Below are positions 4,692-16,681 of a DNA stretch of 64,000 nt, piece after piece (the first letter of the stretch is position 1; each line of letters begins with the position of its first letter). Source of the stretch: Bradymonadia bacterium (GTDB lineage Bacteria; Myxococcota_A; Bradymonadia; UBA7976; UBA1532); assembly GCA_046290225.1 (NCBI GenBank), contig JBKAGE010000078.1, positions 64,001-128,000 of the forward strand. Reading direction: 5' to 3'. The notes under the pieces are model-generated. The model was given only the letters and a program-made list of their open reading frames with translations, was not told the DNA's origin and made no database searches. The position numbers and the translations under genes are program-made.

Positions 4692-5318
4692 ATGGCACGT
4701 ACACGCGACGAAATGGCGGCGCTCGCCGCTCAGGAGATCGAGGGGGGCTTCGCGGTCAACCTCGGCATCGGCATCCCCACTCTGGTAGCGAACCACATCC
4801 CCGAGGATCTGCAGGTCTGGCTGCACAGCGAGAACGGTCTTCTGGGTATGGGCCCGTTCCCCTATGAGGGAGACGAAGATCCGCAGATCATCAACGCAGG
4901 CAAGCAGACGGTGACCGCGCAGCCTGGAGGCAGCTTCTTCGACAGCGCCACCAGCTTCGCCATGATCCGCGGCGGTCACGTCGACCTGGCCATCCTCGGG
5001 GGCATGCAGGTGGACGCCACTGGGGCACTGGCCAACTGGATGGTGCCCGGCAAGCGCGTCACCGGCATGGGAGGCGCCATGGATCTGGTCTCAGGGGCCA
5101 AGCGCGTGGTGGTCCTGATGACCCACTGCGCCAAAGATGGCTCGGCGAAGCTGCTCGATCGATGCACCCTCCCCCTCACGGGTGAAGCCTGCGTCGACCG
5201 CGTGATCACTGATTTGGCGACGTTGGATGTGACCCCCGAGGGGTTCAAACTGGTCTCTGTCGCTGAGGGACACACCGCAGAAGAGGTGCGAGAGAAGACT
5301 GGGGCCATGGTGGCCTGA
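4692..5318 (+). CDS. scoB: 3-oxoacid CoA-transferase subunit B
   Basis: [13 protein letters not shown], catalytic [29 protein letters not shown]. Confidence 0.9.
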
Positions 5319-5376: not shown

Positions 5377-6261
5377 CTAGAGCTGCCTCACTCGATCCAG
5401 AGTGACTTCCACCAGGGCCTGCTCCCGCTCGGAGAGCCCTCCTGAGCGGGCCAGCTGGGCCAGCTCCATGAGCACCTGGCCCTTCCGGCCATGTCGGGCA
5501 TCGAGCTCCGCAGCCATCAACTTCACCACGAAGACTTTCGAGTGTCGTTTCTGTGCTTCGGCGAGCACCGCTCTGGCCCCCTCAAGATCTCCGGCGGCGA
5601 ACCGGACCTCGGCGTCGAGCAGATCGGGCATGGCCTTCCTGATCTCGAGGTCCTCTCGGGTGAGCTTGAAGCTGATCAGAATGCCCAGGCCATCGGTGAC
5701 CTGCCCCTCCGCAGTCCGCCGTGGGATGAGGTTGTTGATGGCGCCGACGAGCGCTGCCGCAGCGACGCTCTGGATCGCGATGACGGACAACGCCGTCGAC
5801 GCAGAGGTCATCGTAGTCCACCCGAAAATGAGCAACAGCAAAGCCACGACAGCAAGTTCGGCCCCTGGGCCCGCAGCGAAGATGAGCGCGTTGGCGAGTC
5901 GAGGGCGATCCGTACGCTCTGGTACAGGCAGTACGTAGCCGCCGATGGGGATCATCCGCAGCTCTACGGGCACACCGTCCACCGAGAAGCCCTTCCAGAG
6001 TGGTCCGAAGCCGATGACCACACGCTCGACACGCCAACCCATGAGTCGCGCCATGATCGCATGACCCGCTTCGTGGATCGCCGTGAGCACCACGTAGGCG
6101 GCGAGGAAGAACACCACTGCGATCTTGACGGGGGTGAAGTCACGCACCACCTCGGCGCCAAGCAGGCCGACGAGGAGAGCCATGAACCAGATGACGAACC
6201 GGCGCTCCTGAGGGGTCAGAGGCCGCTCTTCGTTGCCCGGGGGACGGTGGGGATCAAACAC
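5377..6261 (-). CDS. M50 family (site-2 protease-like) membrane metallopeptidase with TPR-like C-terminus
   Basis: HEAGH zinc motif in TM segment; IGFG, IPIGGYV, AAGP, NNLIP...TDG. Confidence 0.85.
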   Translation of the reverse strand: MFDPHRPPGNEERPLTPQERRFVIWFMALLVGLLGAEVVRDFTPVKIAVVFFLAAYVVLTAIHEAGHAIMARLMGWRVERVVIGFGPLWKGFSVDGVPVELRMIPIGGYVLPVPERTDRPRLANALIFAAGPGAELAVVALLLLIFGWTTMTSASTALSVIAIQSVAAAALVGAINNLIPRRTAEGQVTDGLGILISFKLTREDLEIRKAMPDLLDAEVRFAAGDLEGARAVLAEAQKRHSKVFVVKLMAAELDARHGRKGQVLMELAQLARSGGLSEREQALVEVTLDRVRQL

Positions 6262-6285: not shown

Positions 6286-6993
6286 TCAGTCGTCGCCAGC
6301 GAAAGACATCACCAGCTGCAGGATGTACCAGAACAGGGTGGCGAAGGAGGCGAAGAGCGCCAGCGCCGCCGCCACGTGAGCGCCCACGGGGTAGTGATGC
6401 ACCACGTTGGAGGTCTGGTAGAGGATCCAGCCGGACATCAGCAGCACCATGGCCAGGGAGAAGAAGCTCCCGAGGGTGATGCCGAAGAGGATGGCCACCA
6501 GGATGAAGCCCATGGCGGCAAAGGTGCCGATCATGAGGAACCGCTGCAAGAAGGAGAAATCCTTCTTGGTGAACAACACGGTCAAGGTCAGACCACCAAA
6601 GACCGCCCCCGTGAGAATGCCCGCCGTGGGGATCACGCTGGGGTCCGAGTAGTAGGCGGCGATGAACATCAGCGGCACGAAAATGATGGCTTCAGCCACC
6701 ACATAGAGGGCCAGACCAGCGTACTGCATGCCGAGAGAGCTGCTGTTCATGGCCCAGCGCTCGGCGATGGTGCCCACCACCATGAAGGCGCCGAGCACGA
6801 TGAGCCACATGAATCGGCTGCCGGAGAGCATGTCGAGCATGGCCGGCGCGATCGGGCTCTGAATCAGCGCGGCGGTGAGCAACACGAAGGCGATCACCGC
6901 CCCGCCGAGGTGCAGATAGGTCTTGCGGATGAAGTCCGCACGGGCGTCGACAGATTGTCGACTGCTCTCAACCTGGTGAGAAAGATAGGACAT
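6286..6993 (-). CDS. Bax inhibitor-1/YccA family membrane protein
   Basis: FIRKTYLHL, about 7 TM segments, TKKDFSFL, ILYQTSNV, LFASFATLFWYIL. Confidence 0.9.
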   Translation of the reverse strand: MSYLSHQVESSRQSVDARADFIRKTYLHLGGAVIAFVLLTAALIQSPIAPAMLDMLSGSRFMWLIVLGAFMVVGTIAERWAMNSSSLGMQYAGLALYVVAEAIIFVPLMFIAAYYSDPSVIPTAGILTGAVFGGLTLTVLFTKKDFSFLQRFLMIGTFAAMGFILVAILFGITLGSFFSLAMVLLMSGWILYQTSNVVHHYPVGAHVAAALALFASFATLFWYILQLVMSFAGDD

Positions 6994-7273: not shown

Positions 7274-7999
7274 TCAAGTTGCGGCCTCTGGCCTGGGCCG
7301 AGTGGTGCGGTACTCAATCGGATCCACATAGTTCGACCCCTGGAAGATGCGCTGCACGAAGATGCCCGGCAAGTGCACGTCATCAGGGCCGAGATCACCG
7401 AGGCCCACCATCTCCTCCACCTCCACCACGGTGACCGCGCTGGCCATGGCCACCAAGGGGCTGAAGTTGCGCGAGGTGCCGTAGAACCGCAGGTTGCCGT
7501 AAGGGTCTCCCACCCGCGCCCTCAAGATGCCGAAGTCAGCTTTGAGCGGCAGCTCGAAGACATAACGGCGGCCATCGAGCTCCCGAACCTCTTTGCCCTC
7601 GGCGATGACCGTGCCCACCCCAGTGGGGGTATAGAAGCCGCCGATGCCCGCGCCTCCTGCCCGCATGCGCTCCGCGAGGGTGCCCTGAGGGTTGAGTTCG
7701 ACCTCGACCTCTTTGGAGAGCATCTGCGCCTCGAGATCAGGGTTCCCGCCCACGAAGCTGGCGATCACCTTCTTGATTTGGCGCTGCTGCAACAACACGG
7801 CGAGGCCTTTGCCCTGGTTGCCGCAGTTGTTGCTGATGATGGTGAAGTCTTTCTTGCCGCAACCGGCGAGGGCCCGGATGCAGTGCTCGGCGTTGCCGCT
7901 GAGACCGAAACCGCCAGCCATGATGCGGGCACCATCGAAGACGTCGTGCAGCGCCTCTTCGGCGGAGGTGAAGATCTTGCTCTTGCTCGAGGCGGTCAT
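7274..7999 (-). CDS. scoA: 3-oxoacid CoA-transferase subunit A
   Basis: GGFGLSG, ISNNCG, PQGTLAERMRAGGAGIGGFYTPTGVGT, GNL..RNF; ATG 7999 overlaps the upstream stop (ATGA). Confidence 0.9.
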   Translation of the reverse strand: MTASSKSKIFTSAEEALHDVFDGARIMAGGFGLSGNAEHCIRALAGCGKKDFTIISNNCGNQGKGLAVLLQQRQIKKVIASFVGGNPDLEAQMLSKEVEVELNPQGTLAERMRAGGAGIGGFYTPTGVGTVIAEGKEVRELDGRRYVFELPLKADFGILRARVGDPYGNLRFYGTSRNFSPLVAMASAVTVVEVEEMVGLGDLGPDDVHLPGIFVQRIFQGSNYVDPIEYRTTRPRPEAAT

Positions 8000-9351
8000 G
8001 AAGCCTTCTCTGGAGGTTGATGATGGAACACTTCGCCGAGGGCCTCGTCGACAGCGGCGAGGCCCTCTCGCAGGGTCTCGGCGTCGATGCACAGCGGCGG
8101 CGCGATGAAGATGTAGCTCCACTTGTAGGGGATGTGCAGCCCCCGGCGCCGGAGGGCCTCGCCAAGCTGGGCTGCTTGCCCCTGGTGGCTCTGCGCATAC
8201 GCCGTGAGCGGCGCTCGGCTGTCTCGATCGCGGACCAGCTCGATGGCGCCCCACAAGCCCTTGTTCCGGACATCGCCGATGACCGGGTGCCGATCTGCGA
8301 GCTGCTGCAACTCCTCGGCGAGCACATCACCAAGGGCCGCAGCGTGATCGATGAGCCCTTCGCTCTGATAGGCCTCGATGGCGGCTACAGCGGCGGCACA
8401 GCTGAGCGGGTGCGCGTAGTTGGTGAGGCCACACCACAGCGTCTCATCTTCGAAATGCGCGGCGAGCTCCGGACGCATGGCCACGGCCCCCATGGGGGCG
8501 TAACCACCGGTGATGCCTTTGGCCATGGTGATCATGTCGGGCACCACCCCGTAGTGATCGACGGCGAACCACTGCCCTGTACGACCAAAACCAGAGAGCA
8601 CCTCGTCAGCGACGAGCAGGATCCCGTGGGCGTCGCAGATCTCCCGGACACGGGGCCAGTAGTCGTCGGGGGGGATGAACCCGCCGACGGCGCCGGTGAT
8701 GCCCTCCATGAAGACCGCAGCGATGGTGTGGGGGCCTTCCATTTGAATGACGTGCTCGAGGTGCTCGGCACACCGCACACCACAGCTCGGGTAGCTCTGC
8801 CCGAAGGGGCACCGATAGCAGTACGGATCTTCGACACGGGCCACCCCCGTGAGGCCTGGCTCCACGGGCCAACGTCGAGGATCTCCGGTGATCGAAGCCG
8901 CCCCCATGGAGGCGCCGTGATAGCTCTGCCGCCGGGCGATCACCTTGTGGCGCCCAGTGACCATGCGGGCGATCTTGTAGGCGTTCTCCACTGCCTCGGC
9001 CCCAGAGAGGCACAGGAAGAAGTGGTTCAGATCGCCCGGGGTGATGGCTGCGAGGGCCTCGCCCACAGCAGCCTTGGCCTCAAAGACCGCCGCCGGGTGG
9101 GCACAGCCCAGGATCTCGGCCTGCTTCTGGATCGCCTCGATGACACCGCGGTGGTTGTGACCGAGGTTGCAGTTGAACACCTGGCTCTCGAAGTCGAGCC
9201 ATCGGCCGCCGTCGTGATCGTAGAACACCGCGCCGTCGCCATGGGCGATCTTCACTGGTCGAGCCCTGGCCTGGGCAGCCCACGTGTAGAGCACATGGGC
9301 CCGCTGTCGGGCCTCGAGCTGCGCAGCGTCAGGGTTGTTCGAGCCGCTCAC
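7996..9351 (-). CDS. Class-III (omega-amino acid) aminotransferase
   Basis: SGAEAVENA, SYHG, ADEVLSGFGRTG, PDMITMAKG (PLP Lys), APPL; GTG 9351 overlaps the upstream stop. Confidence 0.9.
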   Translation of the reverse strand: MSGSNNPDAAQLEARQRAHVLYTWAAQARARPVKIAHGDGAVFYDHDGGRWLDFESQVFNCNLGHNHRGVIEAIQKQAEILGCAHPAAVFEAKAAVGEALAAITPGDLNHFFLCLSGAEAVENAYKIARMVTGRHKVIARRQSYHGASMGAASITGDPRRWPVEPGLTGVARVEDPYCYRCPFGQSYPSCGVRCAEHLEHVIQMEGPHTIAAVFMEGITGAVGGFIPPDDYWPRVREICDAHGILLVADEVLSGFGRTGQWFAVDHYGVVPDMITMAKGITGGYAPMGAVAMRPELAAHFEDETLWCGLTNYAHPLSCAAAVAAIEAYQSEGLIDHAAALGDVLAEELQQLADRHPVIGDVRNKGLWGAIELVRDRDSRAPLTAYAQSHQGQAAQLGEALRRRGLHIPYKWSYIFIAPPLCIDAETLREGLAAVDEALGEVFHHQPPEKAS

Positions 9352-12300
9352 GGAAGCCCCTGATCGACGCGCCTGAGGGCATCGACGAGCCGATCGATGT
9401 CGTACTCGGTGGCAGTGAGGGCCGGAACCAGGGCGATGACGTCCCACGAGGGCCGAGCCACCTTGACCCCGCTGGCGGCGAGGCCATGCTGAATCTGGCT
9501 GGCCCGCTTCGCACCGACGCGCAGGGTACGATAGAGGCCCATGCCGCCCAGAACCCCTGGGCCATATCCTGCCGCAACGAGGCCGTCTTCGAGACGGCGT
9601 GAGAGCATGCTCAAGGGCAGATCGCGTGTCAGATAGAGCTGCCGGAGCAGCCGCGTGGCAGAGAGCTCGTCACCATCCCAGGTGCTGATGAGCGTCAGAG
9701 GCTTCTCCACGTACCAGCGATCGTTGCTGAAGATGTGGCCGATCTGACCACCGCTCCACCACAACACCACGTCGGGATCACCCTTCACGCTGTCAAGCCA
9801 CCACAGGTCCTTGCCATTGCGGCCCATGCCAGTGGTGGTCTCCACCAGAACGAGGGGCACCCCGGTGCGATCGCGGAACGCCACCAACGCGGCCCACTGT
9901 TCCGGCGTGATCACCCGGCCTGTCCGGCGCTGGACGGACTCGATGTAGAGGCCGAGCAAGGCGTCAGCGCCGTGGGTGGAGACCAGCGCCTCGAGGGCAG
10001 CGAGGGTCTCTTGGAGGCCGTTGGCCGGGTGAGGCACCATGGGCCAGCCGAAGTGGCCATAGCGTTCAGCCTGCCCCTTGCTGGCGCTGATGGAGAGCGA
10101 GCGCGCGGCGGCGGTGACGGAGCCGAGCTGGCCGCCCTCGACGCCAATGGCCGTGGAGGCGTGCTTGCGATGATGCTTCAGCGCGCGGAAGGACTTGTCC
10201 ACCATCTCGTCGGCACTGCTGGTGAAGTACAGGTGTCCACAGCCCCGTGGGGTCATCTCGCGCAGGTACTCCGCATAGCGCACGTACGGCCGCGTGATGA
10301 AGTTGCTCAGCGTCAGCTTGGTGAGGGCGCCCTCGTCGAAGACCCCGAGCTGGCGTGCCCGGACGAGCTGCGGGTGGGCGGCGCCTGTGGGCTCGCTCAC
10401 CCCGTGGGCTGCATCGAGCACCCGCATGGCCGGGGCCACATTGTCCGCCTCGAAAGCCCGGCGATCGGACCGACGAAGCGGGATGCGGTAGTACCAGGCC
10501 TGAGCGCCGGCGGCGCCATATTGATCTTGCAACAGCTGCGCGCAGTAGGCGCCGAACCGCTGGTTGATGCCCCACATGGCGTCGGTGTGCCCCACACGGT
10601 TTCTGCCCGTGATGAAGGCGTACCGCGGGGCACCAGAGGCGCGCTTCACGTTGAGCGCGGCCTTGATCTGCGCCTCTCTCAACCGCAGACCCACACCACG
10701 CCCCTGAGCGCGGGGATGCACAGTGATGTCAGCGCTGTACAGCGTGTTGTGTCGACGCAGGTTCGGATCCTGCCGAGGGCCGTCCAGGGCCCACCAGAGC
10801 TCTAGAGGACCGGCGAGGGTCAGACCCACGAGGCCCTCGGGATCTTCCGCGACGAGGGCCACCGCCTCTGCGCTCTGGGCCACGGTCTTCAGGTAGGCGG
10901 GCTCGTCCTGGCGTGCGGGCTCATACACCTCACTCTGCAAGGCCTCGATGGCCCCAGCCACAGCGTCGAAGTCACCTGGACCGAGGGCGCGGATGCGGGT
11001 GCCAAGGCAGTCGGCGAGCCAGCGCACCAGGGGCACCCCCACGGCGGTCTCGAATGCCGCAGGATCAGCAGCCTTTGCAGCATCGAGGGCAGCAGCCCCG
11101 CGCACATCTGTGGAGAGGCCCAACGTCACCGCCCCGAGGCGCCGGTCTTGAGGCGAGAGCTCCCCTTCAGTTCGCAACAGCCGATCAGCGTTGAGCGCCG
11201 TAGGCTCTGCGAGCAACGCCTGCAGCGTCAGCGCTGGCGCCGATGCCGGTGCGGCCAGTGGCGTCACCCATTTGGGGACCTCAACAGCCTCCATCCGAGT
11301 CAACCAATCATCCCCATCGAGACCACCTGCCAACTCCACGAGGGCCGCCAACGAGGTGTCGATGATGTCGAAGATGGCCTCGACGTCAGCGGGGCGCATG
11401 GCGCGGTTCATGCGGTACCGCAGGGTGCGGGCGCCGGCGATGTAGACCATGTAACCGCGGTAGAAGCGCTGGGCGATGAGCTTCTGGGCCACCGGCCCCG
11501 AAGGCAGATCGAAGGCGAAGGCGTCACCATACACCCGCGGCCGTGAGACCAGCTGGGGCCAGCGCTCCACCAGGGCAGCGAGGCGTTGCTCGGCGAGCCC
11601 GGCGTGGGTGACGTTGCGCTCCACGATGTCGAGGTGGATCGACCCGCGGACGAGGCTGGCGCTGTGGAACGGCGCCGGATCAGGATCGGGCCACCGGGAG
11701 AGCACAAGGCCCACCTGGGCCCGCTTGGCGCACACGATCAGGTCCGGGCCATCCGGCTGCCCGTCGGCGTCCAGCATCCAGAACAGGCTGTGCCAGAAGA
11801 CCGGGCCACCGAGGCCAAAGCCCACCTGCACCTCGTCGAAGATGAGCGGCACACCATAGGCCCGCGTGAGCGCCCGGAGGCCGTTCACGAACCGGCTGCT
11901 GGCCCCCCGATCACCGCCTTCACACTGGTAGGGCTCGAGCATGCAGGCCATCACATCGCCCGCCTGTAGCGCCTTCTCCGTGGCGATGAGAGACTGCACC
12001 TCTGCCGTAAGGAGCGCGTCCCCCTCGGCAGCGGTCACCCACGCCGCGCGGTCGGCGCCAGCGGTCGCCCAGCTCTTGCGCCACCCCTCGGGGATGACGG
12101 GATCCGCGAGTTCGACGTCGAGAGGGAACGGCAGGAAGTCGGTTTCGAAGCCCGGGATCTGATAGGGCGCCCGCTTCACCGGGTTCCAGGTGCTGTAGAG
12201 CGACAACAAAGTGCGGCCGTGGAACGAGCCTTCGAAGGCCAGCACTCGACGCCCGCCAGCGCCGTTCACTCGGGCGATGTGCAGCGCCTTCTCGTTGGCC

Positions 12301-13058
12301 TCAGCACCACTGTTCACCCAGGCCACGTGACGGATCCCCGGAGGGGCCGCCCGGAGCAGGCCCTCGAAGAAGGCCTGGGTCTCGCGCTGCACTGCCGGGT
12401 GGTTCGGAGAGAGCGCCGAGACCATGTGAGGATCGAAGCGCCCCTCGTCGAGGGCCGCCTGGACCTGACCTGGGCGAAAGCCTGCAGCGAGTGAAGCGAT
12501 CTGGCTTGCGGCGTCGACGATCTGCAGAGCATCTTCGTCGACTGACCTGAGGAATGGCCCCTGGCACCGGGCGAGATCCACCACAGCGGGTTTCTTCTCC
12601 CGGGGCAGGAAGCTCTCGCCATAGAACCGCGCGAGCCAGCCCGCGCTCGTGGGCAGCGCCCCTTCGGGGGGCACGTTGATCTTCTGAGGAGGCATCTCCA
12701 GGAATGGCCGGGGATCAGCCTCCTTCAACGCCGTGAGCCACTGGGTCAGCGCGTGCTCCACGCGATCGATGCCCGGCTCCACCGTATCGAAGGCGAGGCG
12801 AATGCCCACATCGTCGGCGACGAGCCCGGCGGCGCGGGCGCGATCTTTGAGTTGTGCCGCCGTGGCCTTCCGGCCGGCGAGCCTCACCTTCAAATCGGAG
12901 AACGGCAGCCACCCGACGTTGGGCTCTGCAGGGTCAACCTCGATGTGGCAGCGAAAGCGCTCTGCCACTTCTTCCAGACGTTGGCGGCGCTCCAACTGAC
13001 GCAACAATCCTTGTCGATCTGCCCGTGCAGTGATGGCCGTGGATTCGGCGTCGAGCAT
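9348..13058 (-). CDS. Fusion: class-III aminotransferase (lysine-6/GABA-AT-like) + GNAT acyltransferase + degenerate second aminotransferase domain
   Basis: NSGAEANEK, FEGSFHGRT, EPYQCEGGD, FDEVQVG, CAKRAQ; GNAT motif A ADITVHPRAQGRGVG; second AT-like unit with VETTTGMG and ISTWDG but no PLP lysine; ATG 13058 overlaps the upstream stop. Confidence 0.85.
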   Translation of the reverse strand: MLDAESTAITARADRQGLLRQLERRQRLEEVAERFRCHIEVDPAEPNVGWLPFSDLKVRLAGRKATAAQLKDRARAAGLVADDVGIRLAFDTVEPGIDRVEHALTQWLTALKEADPRPFLEMPPQKINVPPEGALPTSAGWLARFYGESFLPREKKPAVVDLARCQGPFLRSVDEDALQIVDAASQIASLAAGFRPGQVQAALDEGRFDPHMVSALSPNHPAVQRETQAFFEGLLRAAPPGIRHVAWVNSGAEANEKALHIARVNGAGGRRVLAFEGSFHGRTLLSLYSTWNPVKRAPYQIPGFETDFLPFPLDVELADPVIPEGWRKSWATAGADRAAWVTAAEGDALLTAEVQSLIATEKALQAGDVMACMLEPYQCEGGDRGASSRFVNGLRALTRAYGVPLIFDEVQVGFGLGGPVFWHSLFWMLDADGQPDGPDLIVCAKRAQVGLVLSRWPDPDPAPFHSASLVRGSIHLDIVERNVTHAGLAEQRLAALVERWPQLVSRPRVYGDAFAFDLPSGPVAQKLIAQRFYRGYMVYIAGARTLRYRMNRAMRPADVEAIFDIIDTSLAALVELAGGLDGDDWLTRMEAVEVPKWVTPLAAPASAPALTLQALLAEPTALNADRLLRTEGELSPQDRRLGAVTLGLSTDVRGAAALDAAKAADPAAFETAVGVPLVRWLADCLGTRIRALGPGDFDAVAGAIEALQSEVYEPARQDEPAYLKTVAQSAEAVALVAEDPEGLVGLTLAGPLELWWALDGPRQDPNLRRHNTLYSADITVHPRAQGRGVGLRLREAQIKAALNVKRASGAPRYAFITGRNRVGHTDAMWGINQRFGAYCAQLLQDQYGAAGAQAWYYRIPLRRSDRRAFEADNVAPAMRVLDAAHGVSEPTGAAHPQLVRARQLGVFDEGALTKLTLSNFITRPYVRYAEYLREMTPRGCGHLYFTSSADEMVDKSFRALKHHRKHASTAIGVEGGQLGSVTAAARSLSISASKGQAERYGHFGWPMVPHPANGLQETLAALEALVSTHGADALLGLYIESVQRRTGRVITPEQWAALVAFRDRTGVPLVLVETTTGMGRNGKDLWWLDSVKGDPDVVLWWSGGQIGHIFSNDRWYVEKPLTLISTWDGDELSATRLLRQLYLTRDLPLSMLSRRLEDGLVAAGYGPGVLGGMGLYRTLRVGAKRASQIQHGLAASGVKVARPSWDVIALVPALTATEYDIDRLVDALRRVDQGLP

Positions 13059-14554
13059 CACTGACCTCCCTTCTCGTCGAGGCCCAGGGCCCGGTCCAGG
13101 TTGCCGTGGGCGGTGATCTGCCCAAAGGGCACCTGCATCACTGCCACCGGGTAAGTGCACAGACGCGGTGCCATGGCACCGGCAGGTCGCCAGTTGCCGC
13201 TCATGCCCACGCCGCCGAAAGACAACAGCCCCGAAGCGCCGTTGGTGCTCCGGTTGAAGTTGAGCACCCCCGCCGGGATCTCGTCGTAGAAGCGCTCGAA
13301 GGCCTCCGGGCGGGCGCTGAAGAGACTCGCCGAGAGACCGTAGGTGTTCTCACCGCCCCGGGCGAAGGCGTCGTCCTCGCTCTGCGCCACCTCGAAGGCC
13401 ACGTGAGGCCCGAAAAGCTCCTCGTGCAGCAAACGCTCGTGGCCCTTCACCTCGTACAGACTCGGAGTGACGAAAGCACCCCCGTCGAGGCTCTCGCTCT
13501 CCACGAGCACCTGAGCCCCCTCTTCGCGGCCCTTCTGCAGCAGATCGAGGAAGCGGGTCTTGCTGGCCTCATTCGCCAGCGGCCCCATGAAGGTGGTGTC
13601 TCCTGCAGGATCGCCGGGCTTGATGCGACCAAAGGCCTGCACCAGGCGATCCCTCAGGCCGTCGGCGGCGCCGGGAGTGACGATGACGCGAGAGGTGGCC
13701 GTGCAGCGCTGCCCTGTGGTGAGCAGCGCACCGAGCATGATCTCCCGGGCGGCCTGTTCGAGATCGGCATCATCGAGGACCAGAGCGGGGTTCTTGCCAC
13801 CGAGCTCCAGGCAGACTTTCTTGTAGGGCTGGTCGAAGGTGGCCTGCCGAATCAAACGGCCGGTCCGATAGCTCCCAGTGAAGATCACCCCCCGGACCCC
13901 ACTGTGAGAGACGAGAGCTGCCCCAGTGTCTCCAAGGCCATGAACCAGGTTGAACACCCCTGCGGGGAACCCTGCCGCCTCGAAGAGCTCGGCGTAGCGC
14001 TGGCCTGCGAGGGGTGTCACCTCAGAGGGCTTGGCCACGACGGTGTTGCCCGTGAGCAACGCGGGGATCACGTGGGTGTTCACCAAATGCACGGGGAAGT
14101 TGAACGGGCCGATGATGGCCACCACCCCGAGGGCGTGAAAACGCTGCTCTCCAGGGGCGCCAGGACCTGCAGGGGGCAAGGCGTGGCCGATCTGGCTGAT
14201 GACACCGTCGATCTTGCCGGCGATGCTCCGGGCCTCGATGAGGGCCTCGTTCCGGGTCTTGCCCATCTCAGCAGTGATCGCTTCGGCGATGCGCTCTGCA
14301 TGATCACCCACTTTGTCCCGCACGGCCTTCAGCGCTTCGATGCGCCCTTCCAGACCGGCCCCACGCCACCCTCGGAGCGCGCTTCGGGCAGCGGTGACCG
14401 CACGATCCACGGCGCCCACGTCAGCCACGACCTCGAGGACGGGCTGATGACCATGGGCGGGGTTGCGGGAGACAAAGGTCTGCCCTCCAGCGGAGGGCTC
14501 GAATCGGCCATTGATGAAGTGGCCGCGGAAATCATCGAGGTAGGGGTGCGTCAA
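13058..14554 (-). CDS. astD: Aldehyde dehydrogenase, succinylglutamate-semialdehyde dehydrogenase (AstD)-like
   Basis: GPFNFP, KPSE, FTGS, LELGGKN, GQRCT, EELFGP; AstD-type C-terminus FGGVGMSGNWRPAG..CTYPVA; exact substrate uncertain. Confidence 0.75.
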   Translation of the reverse strand: MTHPYLDDFRGHFINGRFEPSAGGQTFVSRNPAHGHQPVLEVVADVGAVDRAVTAARSALRGWRGAGLEGRIEALKAVRDKVGDHAERIAEAITAEMGKTRNEALIEARSIAGKIDGVISQIGHALPPAGPGAPGEQRFHALGVVAIIGPFNFPVHLVNTHVIPALLTGNTVVAKPSEVTPLAGQRYAELFEAAGFPAGVFNLVHGLGDTGAALVSHSGVRGVIFTGSYRTGRLIRQATFDQPYKKVCLELGGKNPALVLDDADLEQAAREIMLGALLTTGQRCTATSRVIVTPGAADGLRDRLVQAFGRIKPGDPAGDTTFMGPLANEASKTRFLDLLQKGREEGAQVLVESESLDGGAFVTPSLYEVKGHERLLHEELFGPHVAFEVAQSEDDAFARGGENTYGLSASLFSARPEAFERFYDEIPAGVLNFNRSTNGASGLLSFGGVGMSGNWRPAGAMAPRLCTYPVAVMQVPFGQITAHGNLDRALGLDEKGGQ

Positions 14555-14636
14555 GTGGGGTGACCTCGTCGGGGCTCTGGTGTTGAGGGCTCTTTGATTT
14601 GAGGATCTCGGGCTTCGAACGCCGGGATGTGAAACT

Positions 14637-15461
14637 TTACGACCGCTTTTTGGGGATCTCCAGGTTCAAACGGCTCATGACCTTTTTCAGGTCACCCCAG
14701 ACCGGACGCTTGAGATCAGGGTGCTTGAGCAGCAGCCCTGGGGGGAACGTCACCATCACGGGACGACCCGGGCCTTCGCCATAGGTGTGCCAACGGCCGC
14801 GCATTCGCGCCATCGAGGCGCGGACGTCCAGCAGTGAGCGTGCAGGGAACACACCCATGGCCACGATGACCTCAGGCTGAAACGCCTGGACCGCCTCGGC
14901 GAGGTGCTCTCGACACCATCGCGTGCCCCCACCCTCGAGCAGGTTCACCAGCGCCACGTCGGCCACCGACAACCCCATGGCCCGGATCATCTTGTGCAGC
15001 AGAGTGCCTGCTGCGCCGTGGAAGGGCTCGAGAGGCTCCGGGGGCTGCTCTGTATGCGGCTCCCCGAGGAACATGAGGCGGGCCGGCTGCGGGCCTGTGG
15101 CCACCAGCGCCGGGCGTCCCCCCTCCCCCGGGAGCACGATGTGCTCTCCCTCCACGACACCCAGGGTGGACCACGTGGACATGGAGGGCATCTGGGAGAG
15201 CGAGGCTTCCGTGGGCGCTCCAGGGCTGGCGGGTGCTGATGGCCCAGGTGATGTGGCAGCAGGTGCCACTCGGGCCACAGGTGCAGGAGGATTCTGGGGG
15301 GCCGGCCTTCGCTTCGGCGGGGTGCGGGGTGCGATGCGACCCAGGGGTGGCATGTCGAACCCCTCGGGGATCGGCAGGGCCAGCTCTCCGGACTCCTGCA
15401 TCCAGGCCACAGCACCTCGGGCCGCAGCCACCAGCCGGGCCAGCTCAGCGCGATCGCTCAC
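14637..15461 (-). CDS. Family-4 uracil-DNA glycosylase-like protein, catalytically degenerate
   Basis: ARLMFLGE..PFHGAAGTLLHKMIRAMGL, QPEVIVAMG, RMRGRW, LLKHPDLKRPVWGDL; lies after coaBC with a GTGA overlap. Confidence 0.8.
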   Translation of the reverse strand: MSDRAELARLVAAARGAVAWMQESGELALPIPEGFDMPPLGRIAPRTPPKRRPAPQNPPAPVARVAPAATSPGPSAPASPGAPTEASLSQMPSMSTWSTLGVVEGEHIVLPGEGGRPALVATGPQPARLMFLGEPHTEQPPEPLEPFHGAAGTLLHKMIRAMGLSVADVALVNLLEGGGTRWCREHLAEAVQAFQPEVIVAMGVFPARSLLDVRASMARMRGRWHTYGEGPGRPVMVTFPPGLLLKHPDLKRPVWGDLKKVMSRLNLEIPKKRS

Positions 15462-16681
15462 CCCTCACCTCCAATTCGAGCACACGCCCAGTCCACGATG
15501 GCCTGGGCGAGGGCTGTCTTCTGCTCCAGCGCCCTCTGTGTCACCGCCTCTGCAGTGACAAACCATGTCTGGTTCGTCTGGCCAGCGAAGCCGCTGCCCT
15601 CAGCGGTGATGTCGTTCGCCACGATGAGATCAGCACCCTTTCGAGCCAGCTTGCCCTGAGCCGAGGGCACAGGGTGGCCCGTCTCGGCGGCGAAACCCAC
15701 CAGGACCTCAGGGCCACGCCCCGCTCGGCGCATGGCCCCCACGTCGGCGAGGATGTCGGGGTTGCGCACAAGCTCGAGGTGCATGGGCCCCGCCTTCTTC
15801 TTGATCTTGCCCGGTGCCGCCTCGGCGGGGCGGTAGTCTGCCACCGCAGCGGTCATGATGGCTGCGGCCACAGGGGCCTCGTGGGCCGCCATCACCGCCG
15901 CGTGCATCTGCACCGCCGAGGTCACGGGCACTGCAGTGACACCTGCAGGTGGCTCGATGGACACTGGACCGTGCACCAGGATCACCTCTGCGCCAGCCTC
16001 GGCTGCCGCTGCAGCGATGGCGAAGCCAGTACGACCACTGGAGGGGTTCGAGAGAAAGCGCACCGGGTCGACGTGCTCTCGTGTGGGTCCCGCGGTGATC
16101 ACCACACGGCGACCGACGAGGCGTTTAGGCCGCCTGTCGCGGGCGACGATCTCTGCCACGGCCTGCACGATGGCGTCGGGCTCGGCGAGGCGACCAGGCC
16201 CTGTGTGACCACAAGCGAGCTCTCCAGAGTCCGGCGTGACGATGTGCACGCCACGAGCCTGCAAGCGCTCGAGGTTCTCCTGCACAGGGGGCTGTTGGTA
16301 CATGAACGTGTTCATCGCCGGGCACACCACCACCGGCACGTTCGCCGCCAGCAACACCGTGGAGACGATCTCGTCACCCAGCCCGTTGGCCATCTTGCCG
16401 ATGAGGTTCGCCGTCGCCGGCGCCACCACCAGCACGTCGCATTGCTGGGCGAAGGCGATGTGGCCGATCTCCATCTCTTCTGAAGGATCGAGCGTCTCGG
16501 TGAGCACGGGCTGATGGGTCAGGCCCTGAAACGTGAGGGGGCCGATGAACTGTCGGGCGTTGGGCGTCATGGCCACCTGCACGGTGGCACCAGCCTTGAT
16601 GAGGCCTCTGGCCACCTCGGCGGCTTTGTAGGCGGCGATGCCCCCAGCGACGCAGAGGTGCACTCGGGTGTTGTTCAACAT
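15458..16681 (-). CDS. coaBC: Phosphopantothenoylcysteine decarboxylase/synthase
   Basis: GGIAAYKA, APATAN, PAMN, ELACG, TAGPTRE.DPVRFLSNPSSG, AAVADY, GFAAET. Confidence 0.97.
   Translation of the reverse strand: MLNNTRVHLCVAGGIAAYKAAEVARGLIKAGATVQVAMTPNARQFIGPLTFQGLTHQPVLTETLDPSEEMEIGHIAFAQQCDVLVVAPATANLIGKMANGLGDEIVSTVLLAANVPVVVCPAMNTFMYQQPPVQENLERLQARGVHIVTPDSGELACGHTGPGRLAEPDAIVQAVAEIVARDRRPKRLVGRRVVITAGPTREHVDPVRFLSNPSSGRTGFAIAAAAAEAGAEVILVHGPVSIEPPAGVTAVPVTSAVQMHAAVMAAHEAPVAAAIMTAAVADYRPAEAAPGKIKKKAGPMHLELVRNPDILADVGAMRRAGRGPEVLVGFAAETGHPVPSAQGKLARKGADLIVANDITAEGSGFAGQTNQTWFVTAEAVTQRALEQKTALAQAIVDWACARIGGEG

Follow-up and report, generated by a model that had tools for sequence, protein, structure and literature searches.

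How might an aminotransferase assemble its active site when two homologous units of one polypeptide each keep a different part of the residues that such a site requires? The question is raised by P0001, the product of a gene in a 64,000-nucleotide stretch of DNA from a Bradymonadia bacterium (GenBank assembly GCA_046290225.1, contig JBKAGE010000078.1, positions 64,001 to 128,000 of the forward strand), hereafter the window, in which coordinates count from the first letter. Fold-type I enzymes, which depend on pyridoxal 5'-phosphate (PLP), need two subunits, each active site borrowing residues from the partner. In the class-III aminotransferases, according to a published account (PMC6698932), PLP is fixed by residues of the other subunit, including a threonine, and the dimer is the minimal unit. 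A preliminary description of the window had proposed a tandem duplication whose two copies share one composite active site, with an acyltransferase domain of the GNAT family placed between them. The explanation that we favor as a whole, and consider probable, is that a live unit 1 and a dead unit 2, the latter lending its Ser-Thr-Trp loop, form one composite site per pair and act in a route read from the neighboring genes.

Two homologous units with complementary motif loss

The P0001 gene occupies 9348..13058 of the reverse strand as a single stop-free open reading frame (ORF), whose translation gives 1236 codons plus a stop. The ATG at 13058 is preceded by AAGGGAGG, a strong Shine-Dalgarno sequence or ribosome-binding site, and shares bases with the TGA that ends the upstream aldehyde dehydrogenase gene (TGATG, 13056-13060). 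These two features favor it over an alternative, longer reading, GTG-initiated, that reaches to 13160, and the ATG is likely the start of the gene. The ORF is intact and contains two homologous units with complementary motif loss, an arrangement conserved across three phyla. All nine motifs quoted in the preliminary description are present in the translation: SGAEANE at residue 250, FHGRT at 279, DEVQ at 408, CAKRAQ at 443, PDPDPAPFH at 457, SADEMVD at 948, QLGSV at 977, VETTTG at 1072 and ISTWDG at 1124. For three of them, a second translation, made from the window coordinates, gave the same result.

Unit 1 matches the Pfam model Aminotran_3 (PF00202) over residues 152-454 (E 8e-44; 150.3 bits against a gathering score of 30.5). 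Its nearest solved structures in a phmmer search are lysine and γ-aminobutyrate (GABA) aminotransferases (E 2e-21 to 2e-18), and residues 98-542 of its model align with acetylornithine, lysine and GABA aminotransferases at a VIA-align Z of about 38. Foldseek with the full model returned the Mycobacterium tuberculosis lysine aminotransferase as top match, with a template modeling (TM) score of 0.83 on the target. The residues that a subunit contributes to its own site, Lys445, Asp408 and the phosphate loop G251-A-E, align to those of solved enzymes and are invariant in relatives. The arginine of TLRYR aligns with that of IRFR in the pig GABA aminotransferase, and we take it to be the binder of the 2-oxoglutarate carboxylate. 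A threonine loop of its own is absent from unit 1, the HMMER alignment having its gap exactly opposite FNTWLGD of the pig enzyme. The preliminary description had unit 1 without an STW-type loop after the lysine; this stands insofar as no conserved threonine is found, but the loop is not simply absent, for a different conserved loop occupies the place. In relatives, mostly myxobacterial, this post-lysine loop has its own pattern, S-R-W-P-D-P..H-x-A-S-x-x-R-G, with D458 in 118, H465 in 112 and R471 in 119 of the 120 relatives listed. Threonine reaches at most 44/120 in any of its columns in the MAFFT alignment, and across phyla (15 genome loci and the 120 listed relatives) no column holds a conserved threonine or serine.

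The C-terminal 357 residues, searched alone, also match Aminotran_3 (E 5.8e-10; 38.8 bits against 30.5), the match spanning profile positions 38-401 of 403; among solved structures the best match of unit 2 has an E of 2e-9. Because the Pfam match exceeds the gathering score over the whole fold and solved structures are matched as well, unit 2 is, on sequence grounds, a true class-III homologue of fold type I; the preliminary description had allowed that it might not belong to this fold type. An alignment to a chain of 2eo5 and an alignment to unit 1 agree that Ser1102 stands where the lysine would be and Val1072 where the aspartate would be, and in both the S-T-W-D-G of unit 2 falls on the active enzyme's N-T-F-G-G loop. 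Fold searches with the full-length model returned matches to unit 1 only, so that for unit 2 the fold is judged from sequence homology and from the secondary structure that the model shows. The family-profile search of the PDB was swamped by aldehyde dehydrogenases and yielded no alignment of unit 2 to a lysine aminotransferase. Aligned with each other, the two units are 31% identical across 62 residues (E 1e-4), and both carry Q-[VI]-G three residues past the lysine position, a signature that we presume typical of the branch formed by lysine ε-aminotransferase (LAT) and GABA aminotransferase; these resemblances hint at the tandem duplication proposed at the outset.

The complementary pattern holds throughout the family. 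A word-seeded search gave 341 relatives at E ≤0.001 among 7993 scored candidates, of which 120, mostly myxobacterial, are listed and were aligned with MAFFT; counts out of 118 or 119 refer to rows without a gap. Lys445 is found in 119/119 rows and Asp408 in 118/118, while in unit 2 Thr1126 and the whole S-T-W-D-G are found in 118/118. Position 1102 is A, G, S, T, P or C and is lysine in 0/118, no lysine stands anywhere at 1096-1108 in the 120 rows, and aspartate is found at 1072 in 3/118. This complementary loss is far beyond chance, and the view that unit 2 lost its catalytic motifs and kept ISTWDG is borne out. The gene was also translated from 17 genome loci; with two left out (L010 and L013, in the wrong frame), all 15 remaining loci, from Myxococcota, Bdellovibrionota and one Pirellulaceae genome, show the same pattern (15/15). 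Mean identity to the query is 0.55 for unit 1, 0.48 for GNAT, 0.47 for unit 2, 0.35 for the linker and 0.31 for the N-terminal domain. By this measure, unit 2 is under purifying selection similar to that on GNAT.

Residues 640-1236 were also searched exhaustively with HMMER against 1.84 billion representatives, which gave 435 matches at E ≤0.001, 296 at ≤1e-10 and 100 at ≤1e-30, the aligned part of the long matches being the C-terminal end of proteins of about 1000-1760 residues. Among 201 sampled genomes of the window's phylum, its own included, 17 match at E ≤1e-30, each with a single copy. From this distribution and the spread across phyla it follows that the fusion is real, old and patchily distributed; the preliminary description had left room for its absence from relatives, and it is present in them.

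Predicted packing of the chain

The full-length AlphaFold2 model (residues 37-1236, built on a custom 105-row alignment) has a mean predicted local distance difference test (pLDDT) of 94.5 and a predicted TM score (pTM) of 0.94, and presents five domains over 1200 residues as one confidently packed body. In a separate prediction, unit 1 and unit 2 were given as two chains with PLP included, again with a custom alignment, in three runs alongside three controls. The pair scored 0.94, 0.95 and 0.94 against 0.00 for the best control, PLP itself being unscored; in a calibration that contained no small molecules, the pairing mark was reached by 116 of 157 solved complexes and by 2 of 215 mismatched pairs. 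The runs share at least 93% of contacts, with a partner pLDDT of at least 91.

On the side of unit 1, the confident interface comprises residues 248-253 (the phosphate loop), G281-L285 of FHGRT, Ala444-Lys445 and the post-lysine loop 460-471. On the side of unit 2 it comprises the degenerate loop 947-951, G1103-Q1105 at the lost-lysine site, and 1116-1127 with Ser1125-Thr1126-Trp1127. The predicted contacts are symmetric, as they are in canonical class-III dimers, and the STW loop of unit 2 lies opposite the live site of unit 1. In the mechanism that we propose, live unit 1 (Lys445, Asp408) would pair with dead unit 2 inside one polypeptide, and the Ser-Thr-Trp loop of unit 2 would supply the contact to the PLP phosphate that a partner subunit normally lends. 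The core of the composite active site postulated in the preliminary description thus draws support from family-wide conservation, a rigid model and a two-chain interface that joins the Lys445 region to the STW loop, all of it predicted rather than measured.

Packing as a pseudo-dimer is predicted together with a GNAT fold between the units. A separate AlphaFold2 model of residues 670-870 has a pLDDT of 94.5 and the strand-helix order of a GNAT, and Foldseek matches it to GNATs with a probability of 1.00 and E down to 7e-10. In the 120 listed relatives, the acyl-CoA motif retains G788 in 116 and G790 in 119, and some relatives carry precomputed PF00583 matches. By sequence the region gave no meaningful match in the PDB or NCBIfam. 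The identity of the intervening domain as a GNAT, given in the preliminary description, is confirmed by the modeled fold. Its top fold matches are PA4866/YncA/phosphinothricin acetyltransferases, Ard1/Naa and SpeG; because their E-values are near-tied across these subfamilies, the substrate cannot be read from the fold. The N-terminal domain is well folded in the model (pLDDT mostly >90), and residues 1-130 gave no match in Pfam or NCBIfam. It is missing from the Bdellovibrionota forms, its matches among the genome loci are confined to L001 and L002, and it may serve in docking of the dehydrogenase. The features of P0001 and of its neighbors are located in Table 1.

Table 1. Position and character of the P0001 gene, its parts and the adjacent genes in the window.
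Feature	Coordinates	Strand	Remarks
Whole ORF P0001	9348..13058	(-)	1236 aa: N-terminal domain, live unit 1, helical linker, GNAT, dead unit 2
N-terminal domain, residues 1-130	12669..13058	(-)	No family match; lies between dehydrogenase and unit 1 in fused relatives
Unit 1, residues 131-581	11316..12668	(-)	Class-III aminotransferase; GAEANEK, FHGRT, DEVQ, AK445RAQVG, TLRYR
Lys445 codon, Schiff-base lysine of unit 1	11724..11726	(-)	From alignments and coordinate translation
Helical linker, residues 582-685	11004..11315	(-)	Helices at model residues 549-649; poorly conserved
GNAT domain, residues 686-862	10473..11003	(-)	Acyl-CoA motif Q785-x-x-G788-x-G790
Unit 2, residues 881-1236	9351..10418	(-)	Class-III homologue without catalytic Lys (Ser1102) and Asp (Val1072)
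Ser1102 codon, lost-lysine position of unit 2	9753..9755	(-)	From alignments and coordinate translation
S1125-T-W-D-G-D1130, partner-subunit loop of unit 2	9669..9686	(-)	Invariant; predicted to complete the unit-1 PLP site
AstD-like aldehyde dehydrogenase	13058..14554	(-)	Translationally coupled (TGATG) to the P0001 gene
Second class-III (omega-type) aminotransferase, AT3b	7996..9447	(-)	Neighbor in 22/30 stretches
3-oxoacid CoA-transferase subunit A	7274..8254	(-)	Likely start near 8000; PcaI/ScoA 3-oxoacid family; 20/30 stretches
CoA-transferase subunit B	4692..5318	(+)	Displaced from subunit A, opposite strand; 18/30 stretches

Conserved neighbors and a proposed route

Neighbors were counted by clustering ORFs over 30 stretches, namely 29 genome loci (L001-L029) and the window, with Pfam assigned on L015 and L025. 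The aldehyde dehydrogenase gene lies directly upstream of the P0001 gene in 18 of the 29 loci, and 67 of the 120 listed relatives have an aldehyde dehydrogenase domain fused at the N terminus, the protein then being about 1500-1800 residues long. Because these relatives hold both in one reading frame, the TGATG junction in the window represents the split state of a fusion/fission boundary. To the dehydrogenase part of the family profile, the solved AstD structures 4kna, 3ju8 and 5u0l are closest (E about 1e-123), and the window's own dehydrogenase is closest to succinylglutamate-semialdehyde dehydrogenase.

The solved structure closest to AT3b is 6jix, a taurine:2-oxoglutarate aminotransferase (E 1e-82). 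With its listed GTG at 9447 as start, the gene would share 100 bases with the end of the P0001 gene, and the product would gain an extension of basic, low-complexity sequence; because relatives align only from about 9300, this start is probably too far upstream and the true one probably lies downstream of the P0001 stop. The CoA-transferase subunits A and B are adjacent and co-oriented in L015 and L025. Here they lie about 2 kb apart on opposite strands, separated by a Bax1-I family gene (6286-6993) and an M50 peptidase gene (5377-6261), which suggests a local rearrangement. A gene of the C45 / acyl-CoA:6-APA acyltransferase family (about 370 residues) recurs in 20 of the 30 stretches. Its place is between the P0001 gene and AT3b (L015:11171-12283), corresponding in the window to about 9300-9350, where the gene is missing.

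The remaining recurrent neighbor clusters are shadow frames of the same genes or are lineage-specific. Long antisense shadow ORFs (e.g. 9735-10805, 8017-9363 and 13106-14563, all on the + strand) are expected at 65-68% G+C, and they gave false clusters of "conserved neighbors" in the locus comparison. Directly upstream of the dehydrogenase lie a uracil-DNA-glycosylase-superfamily gene and coaBC (14637-16681, -), in the same order in L001 and L002, a lineage-specific synteny unrelated to the pathway. No AstA (PF04958), AstB or AstE was found among the Pfam matches of the window's neighbors, L015 or L025, and over the 30 stretches the conserved neighbors include neither a synthetase or exporter nor a KamA-like gene.

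From these conserved neighbors, and from the logic of the AST and Puu pathways compared below, we infer an acylate-transaminate-oxidize-deacylate route. GNAT would transfer an acyl group from acyl-CoA to one of the two amines of a diamino compound, a cap that would stop the later amino-aldehyde from cyclizing. Unit 1 would convert the remaining amine to an aldehyde by transamination, 2-oxoglutarate accepting the amino group, and the coupled AstD-like dehydrogenase would oxidize the aldehyde to an acid. The C45-type amidase, whose gene is present in most relatives and absent from the window cluster, would then remove the cap, and the second aminotransferase and the 3-oxoacid CoA-transferase would complete the route. 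Breakdown of a two-amine compound is a likely role of P0001, and a putative tethered GNAT that channels an N-acylated substrate, as the preliminary description suggested, fits the conserved gene neighborhood.

As to the substrate, conversion of beta-lysine to 3-oxoadipate is a candidate that would use every conserved gene; with the second amine in the beta position the end product would be a 3-oxoacid, as the 3-oxoacid CoA-transferase needs. Diamines such as putrescine or cadaverine are also possible, the CoA-transferase then recycling the released acid. The genome has two KamA-family radical-SAM aminomutase genes (G000:C78:144923-145864, L083; G000:C37:382795-383847, L084), and a literature search for "3-aminoadipate" did not find the term. 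A bolder version, which we regard as an unlikely extension, would make P0001 and the dehydrogenase a self-contained cap-transaminate-oxidize machine for an aerobic, undescribed conversion of beta-lysine (3,6-diaminohexanoate) through N-acyl-3-aminoadipate to 3-oxoadipate, with AT3b and the CoA-transferase completing the route. In this version the lysine-less pocket would moreover be a remodeled and conserved site (WW-A-GGQ and TS..DE..DK of unit 2 with W-P-D-P..H..R of unit 1) rather than a relic, and would serve, between GNAT and the live site, as a holding place for an effector or the acylated substrate.

Alternative explanations and known systems

Several results weigh against the explanation that we favor. 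With regard to pairing, class-III homodimers are abundant among solved structures and the pairing score may mirror that likeness; the two-chain prediction used a custom alignment and was calibrated on complexes that contained no ligand; it cannot separate intrachain from interchain pairing; and the contact of Thr1126 with the PLP phosphate is a prediction drawn from the interface residues. The GNAT region scores 15.8-18.4 bits against PF00583, below the gathering score of 20.7. Unit 1 falls short of the L-lysine 6-transaminase model TIGR03251 (116.2 bits, cut-off 520.8) and of the AstC-type model TIGR03246 (74.1 bits, cut-off 609.95), and the dehydrogenase of the AstD model TIGR03240 (355.2 bits, cut-off 579.3) and of the subfamily model PRK09457 (378.7 bits, cut-off 514). 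With regard to the route, the dehydrogenase is not adjacent in Bdellovibrionota, Pirellulaceae and Enhygromyxa, and the C45 gene is missing from the window cluster and from L002, the only homologue elsewhere in the genome being 28% identical and on another contig (L081). Both KamA-family genes are remote from the cluster, L083 lying about 17 kb past the window end. They score 322.6 and 274.2 bits against the lysine 2,3-aminomutase model, below its cut-off of 525.4; their best NCBIfam models are AblA_like_2 (384 bits, cut-off 396) and lysine 2,3-aminomutase (274 bits, cut-off 525).

Other explanations of the same data deserve consideration. The long ORF could be an artefact, a frameshift or misassembly that joined separate genes; the majority of the 31 short matches are on short contigs, while four (P0127, P0138, P0139 and P0145) are on longer ones and might be split forms. 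The same part order is nevertheless found in 25 of the 29 genome loci, the remaining four being cut off by contig ends, the architecture is present in relatives' proteins across three phyla, and the full-length model is confident throughout. Because the design recurs in Myxococcota, Bdellovibrionota and Pirellulaceae, often with the dehydrogenase fused, the fusion is no assembly artefact, and that reading, already refuted, retains virtually no chance of being right. A live unit could also pair with the dead unit of a second chain; the product would then be a head-to-tail dimer that carries two composite sites, and no intrachain pseudo-dimer would form. The two-chain prediction is blind to this distinction, and the roughly 300 residues of linker and GNAT between the units are long enough for either arrangement; a single-chain pTM of 0.94 over 1200 residues, however, would be hard to reach without confident packing of both units in one chain, and we think interchain pairing unlikely. 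Homodimerization of unit 1 with the unit 1 of a second chain, leaving unit 2 as a pseudoenzyme that acts as GNAT scaffold, regulator or ligand site, would accord with the rule that class-III enzymes are homodimers, as stated in PMC6698932. It would also accord with the conservation of the unit-1 post-lysine loop in the 120 relatives, mostly myxobacterial, where it has not simply decayed. Yet this loop offers no conserved Thr or Ser column across phyla, the invariant STWDGD (118/118) of a domain without lysine would make little sense if there were no live site for it to serve, and the two-chain prediction sets the Lys445 region against unit 2. On balance this arrangement seems to us rather improbable.

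The direction of the chemistry has its own alternative. P0001 could be biosynthetic, unit 1 making an amine from an aldehyde or keto compound and GNAT then acylating it; examples of the product would be a compatible solute, an N-acylated diamine or a precursor of siderophores. Transamination can run in either direction, N-acetylated derivatives of lysine are described as osmolytes, and the carrier taxa are, by their record titles, largely marine or saline. Against this, an irreversible aldehyde-oxidizing dehydrogenase is fused or coupled to the P0001 family, the conserved neighbors (both CoA-transferase subunits, the second omega-aminotransferase and the amidase-like gene) are typical of catabolism, and no synthetase or exporter is conserved nearby. 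We therefore give a biosynthetic role a slender chance and retain the catabolic pairing of live unit 1 with dead unit 2 as the probable explanation.

If this explanation is true, the P0001 family meets the two-subunit requirement inside one chain, one copy keeping only the residues that a subunit uses itself and the other only those that a partner lends. It would be a clean natural case of subfunctionalization following a duplication, in which an acyltransferase sits between the two halves and often a dehydrogenase ahead of them, and the first such case among class-III aminotransferases. The genes would form an uncharacterized catabolic operon common to predatory and marine lineages (Myxococcota, Bdellovibrionota and Pirellulaceae); through its substrate, a new route for diamines or beta-lysine might come to light. 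Enzyme engineers could also find a useful template in such a transaminase scaffold, which would have one site in one chain and a tethered acyltransferase. A search of open-access papers and bioRxiv found no description of a single-chain class-III pair, or of one with an embedded GNAT, in agreement with the preliminary description, whose author did not recognize the architecture as characterized.

The best structural and sequence matches of unit 1 are the M. tuberculosis L-lysine epsilon-aminotransferase (2cin, 2jje) and the pig GABA aminotransferase (1ohv). These enzymes share K-x-x-Q-V-G with unit 1 and have an S/N-T-W loop like that of unit 2; unlike unit 1, they are homodimers in which each subunit has both the lysine and the threonine loop. 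The AST pathway (AstA, AstC, AstD, AstE) caps one amine with an acyl group, transaminates the other with a class-III enzyme, oxidizes the product with AstD and removes the cap. The proposed P0001 route has the same cap-transaminate-oxidize-decap logic, and the window's dehydrogenase is closest to solved AstD structures. It differs in that the acyltransferase is an ordinary GNAT, the enzymes are fused, and no AstA-type, AstB or AstE gene is present; unit 1 is nearer to lysine and GABA aminotransferases than to AstC, and all NCBIfam scores lie below the AST equivalog cut-offs. Because the LAT, AstC and AstD cut-offs are missed, we file the system as one that would work like an AST-type module and not as a member of the AST pathway. 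In the Puu pathway of Escherichia coli, a gamma-glutamyl cap is added with ATP and the amine is oxidized by an oxidase. Here the likeness is the sequence of protecting, oxidizing, dehydrogenating, deprotecting and transaminating the freed omega-amino acid, in which AT3b would match PuuE; the differences are the ATP-dependent gamma-glutamyl cap, an oxidase in place of a transaminase, and the lack of a fusion and of a CoA-transferase.

The division of one site between a live and a dead subunit has closer parallels elsewhere. In serine palmitoyltransferase, LCB1 is without the lysine and the LCB1/LCB2 pair has one composite site. In Emiliania huxleyi viruses, one report states, the two subunits of this enzyme are fused in a single gene (PMC5371807). 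Like P0001, the viral form is a fold-type I PLP enzyme with subunits fused into one gene; it differs in belonging to the alpha-oxoamine synthase family, in having no inserted domain, in being membrane-associated and eukaryotic or viral, and in catalyzing a condensation and not a transamination. SerTA (Ser5/Ser4) of Serratia sp. ATCC 39006 is described as a full-length aminotransferase active only with a lysine-less paralogue that touches the PLP phosphate (PMC11726168). It resembles the proposed P0001 mechanism in that a fold-type I active subunit depends on a dead paralogous partner, which contacts the PLP phosphate of the live subunit. SerTA differs in having two separate genes, the sugar-aminotransferase (DegT) class, a heterotetramer, a truncated dead subunit, no acyltransferase domain and a carrier-protein-bound substrate, whereas in P0001 both units are class III and stand in one chain with a GNAT between them. 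By analogy we take SerTA to be the nearest mechanistic precedent for P0001, and the model presents the P0001 family as one in which a dead paralogue completes a fold-type I PLP enzyme, a known principle in a form uncharacterized in print.

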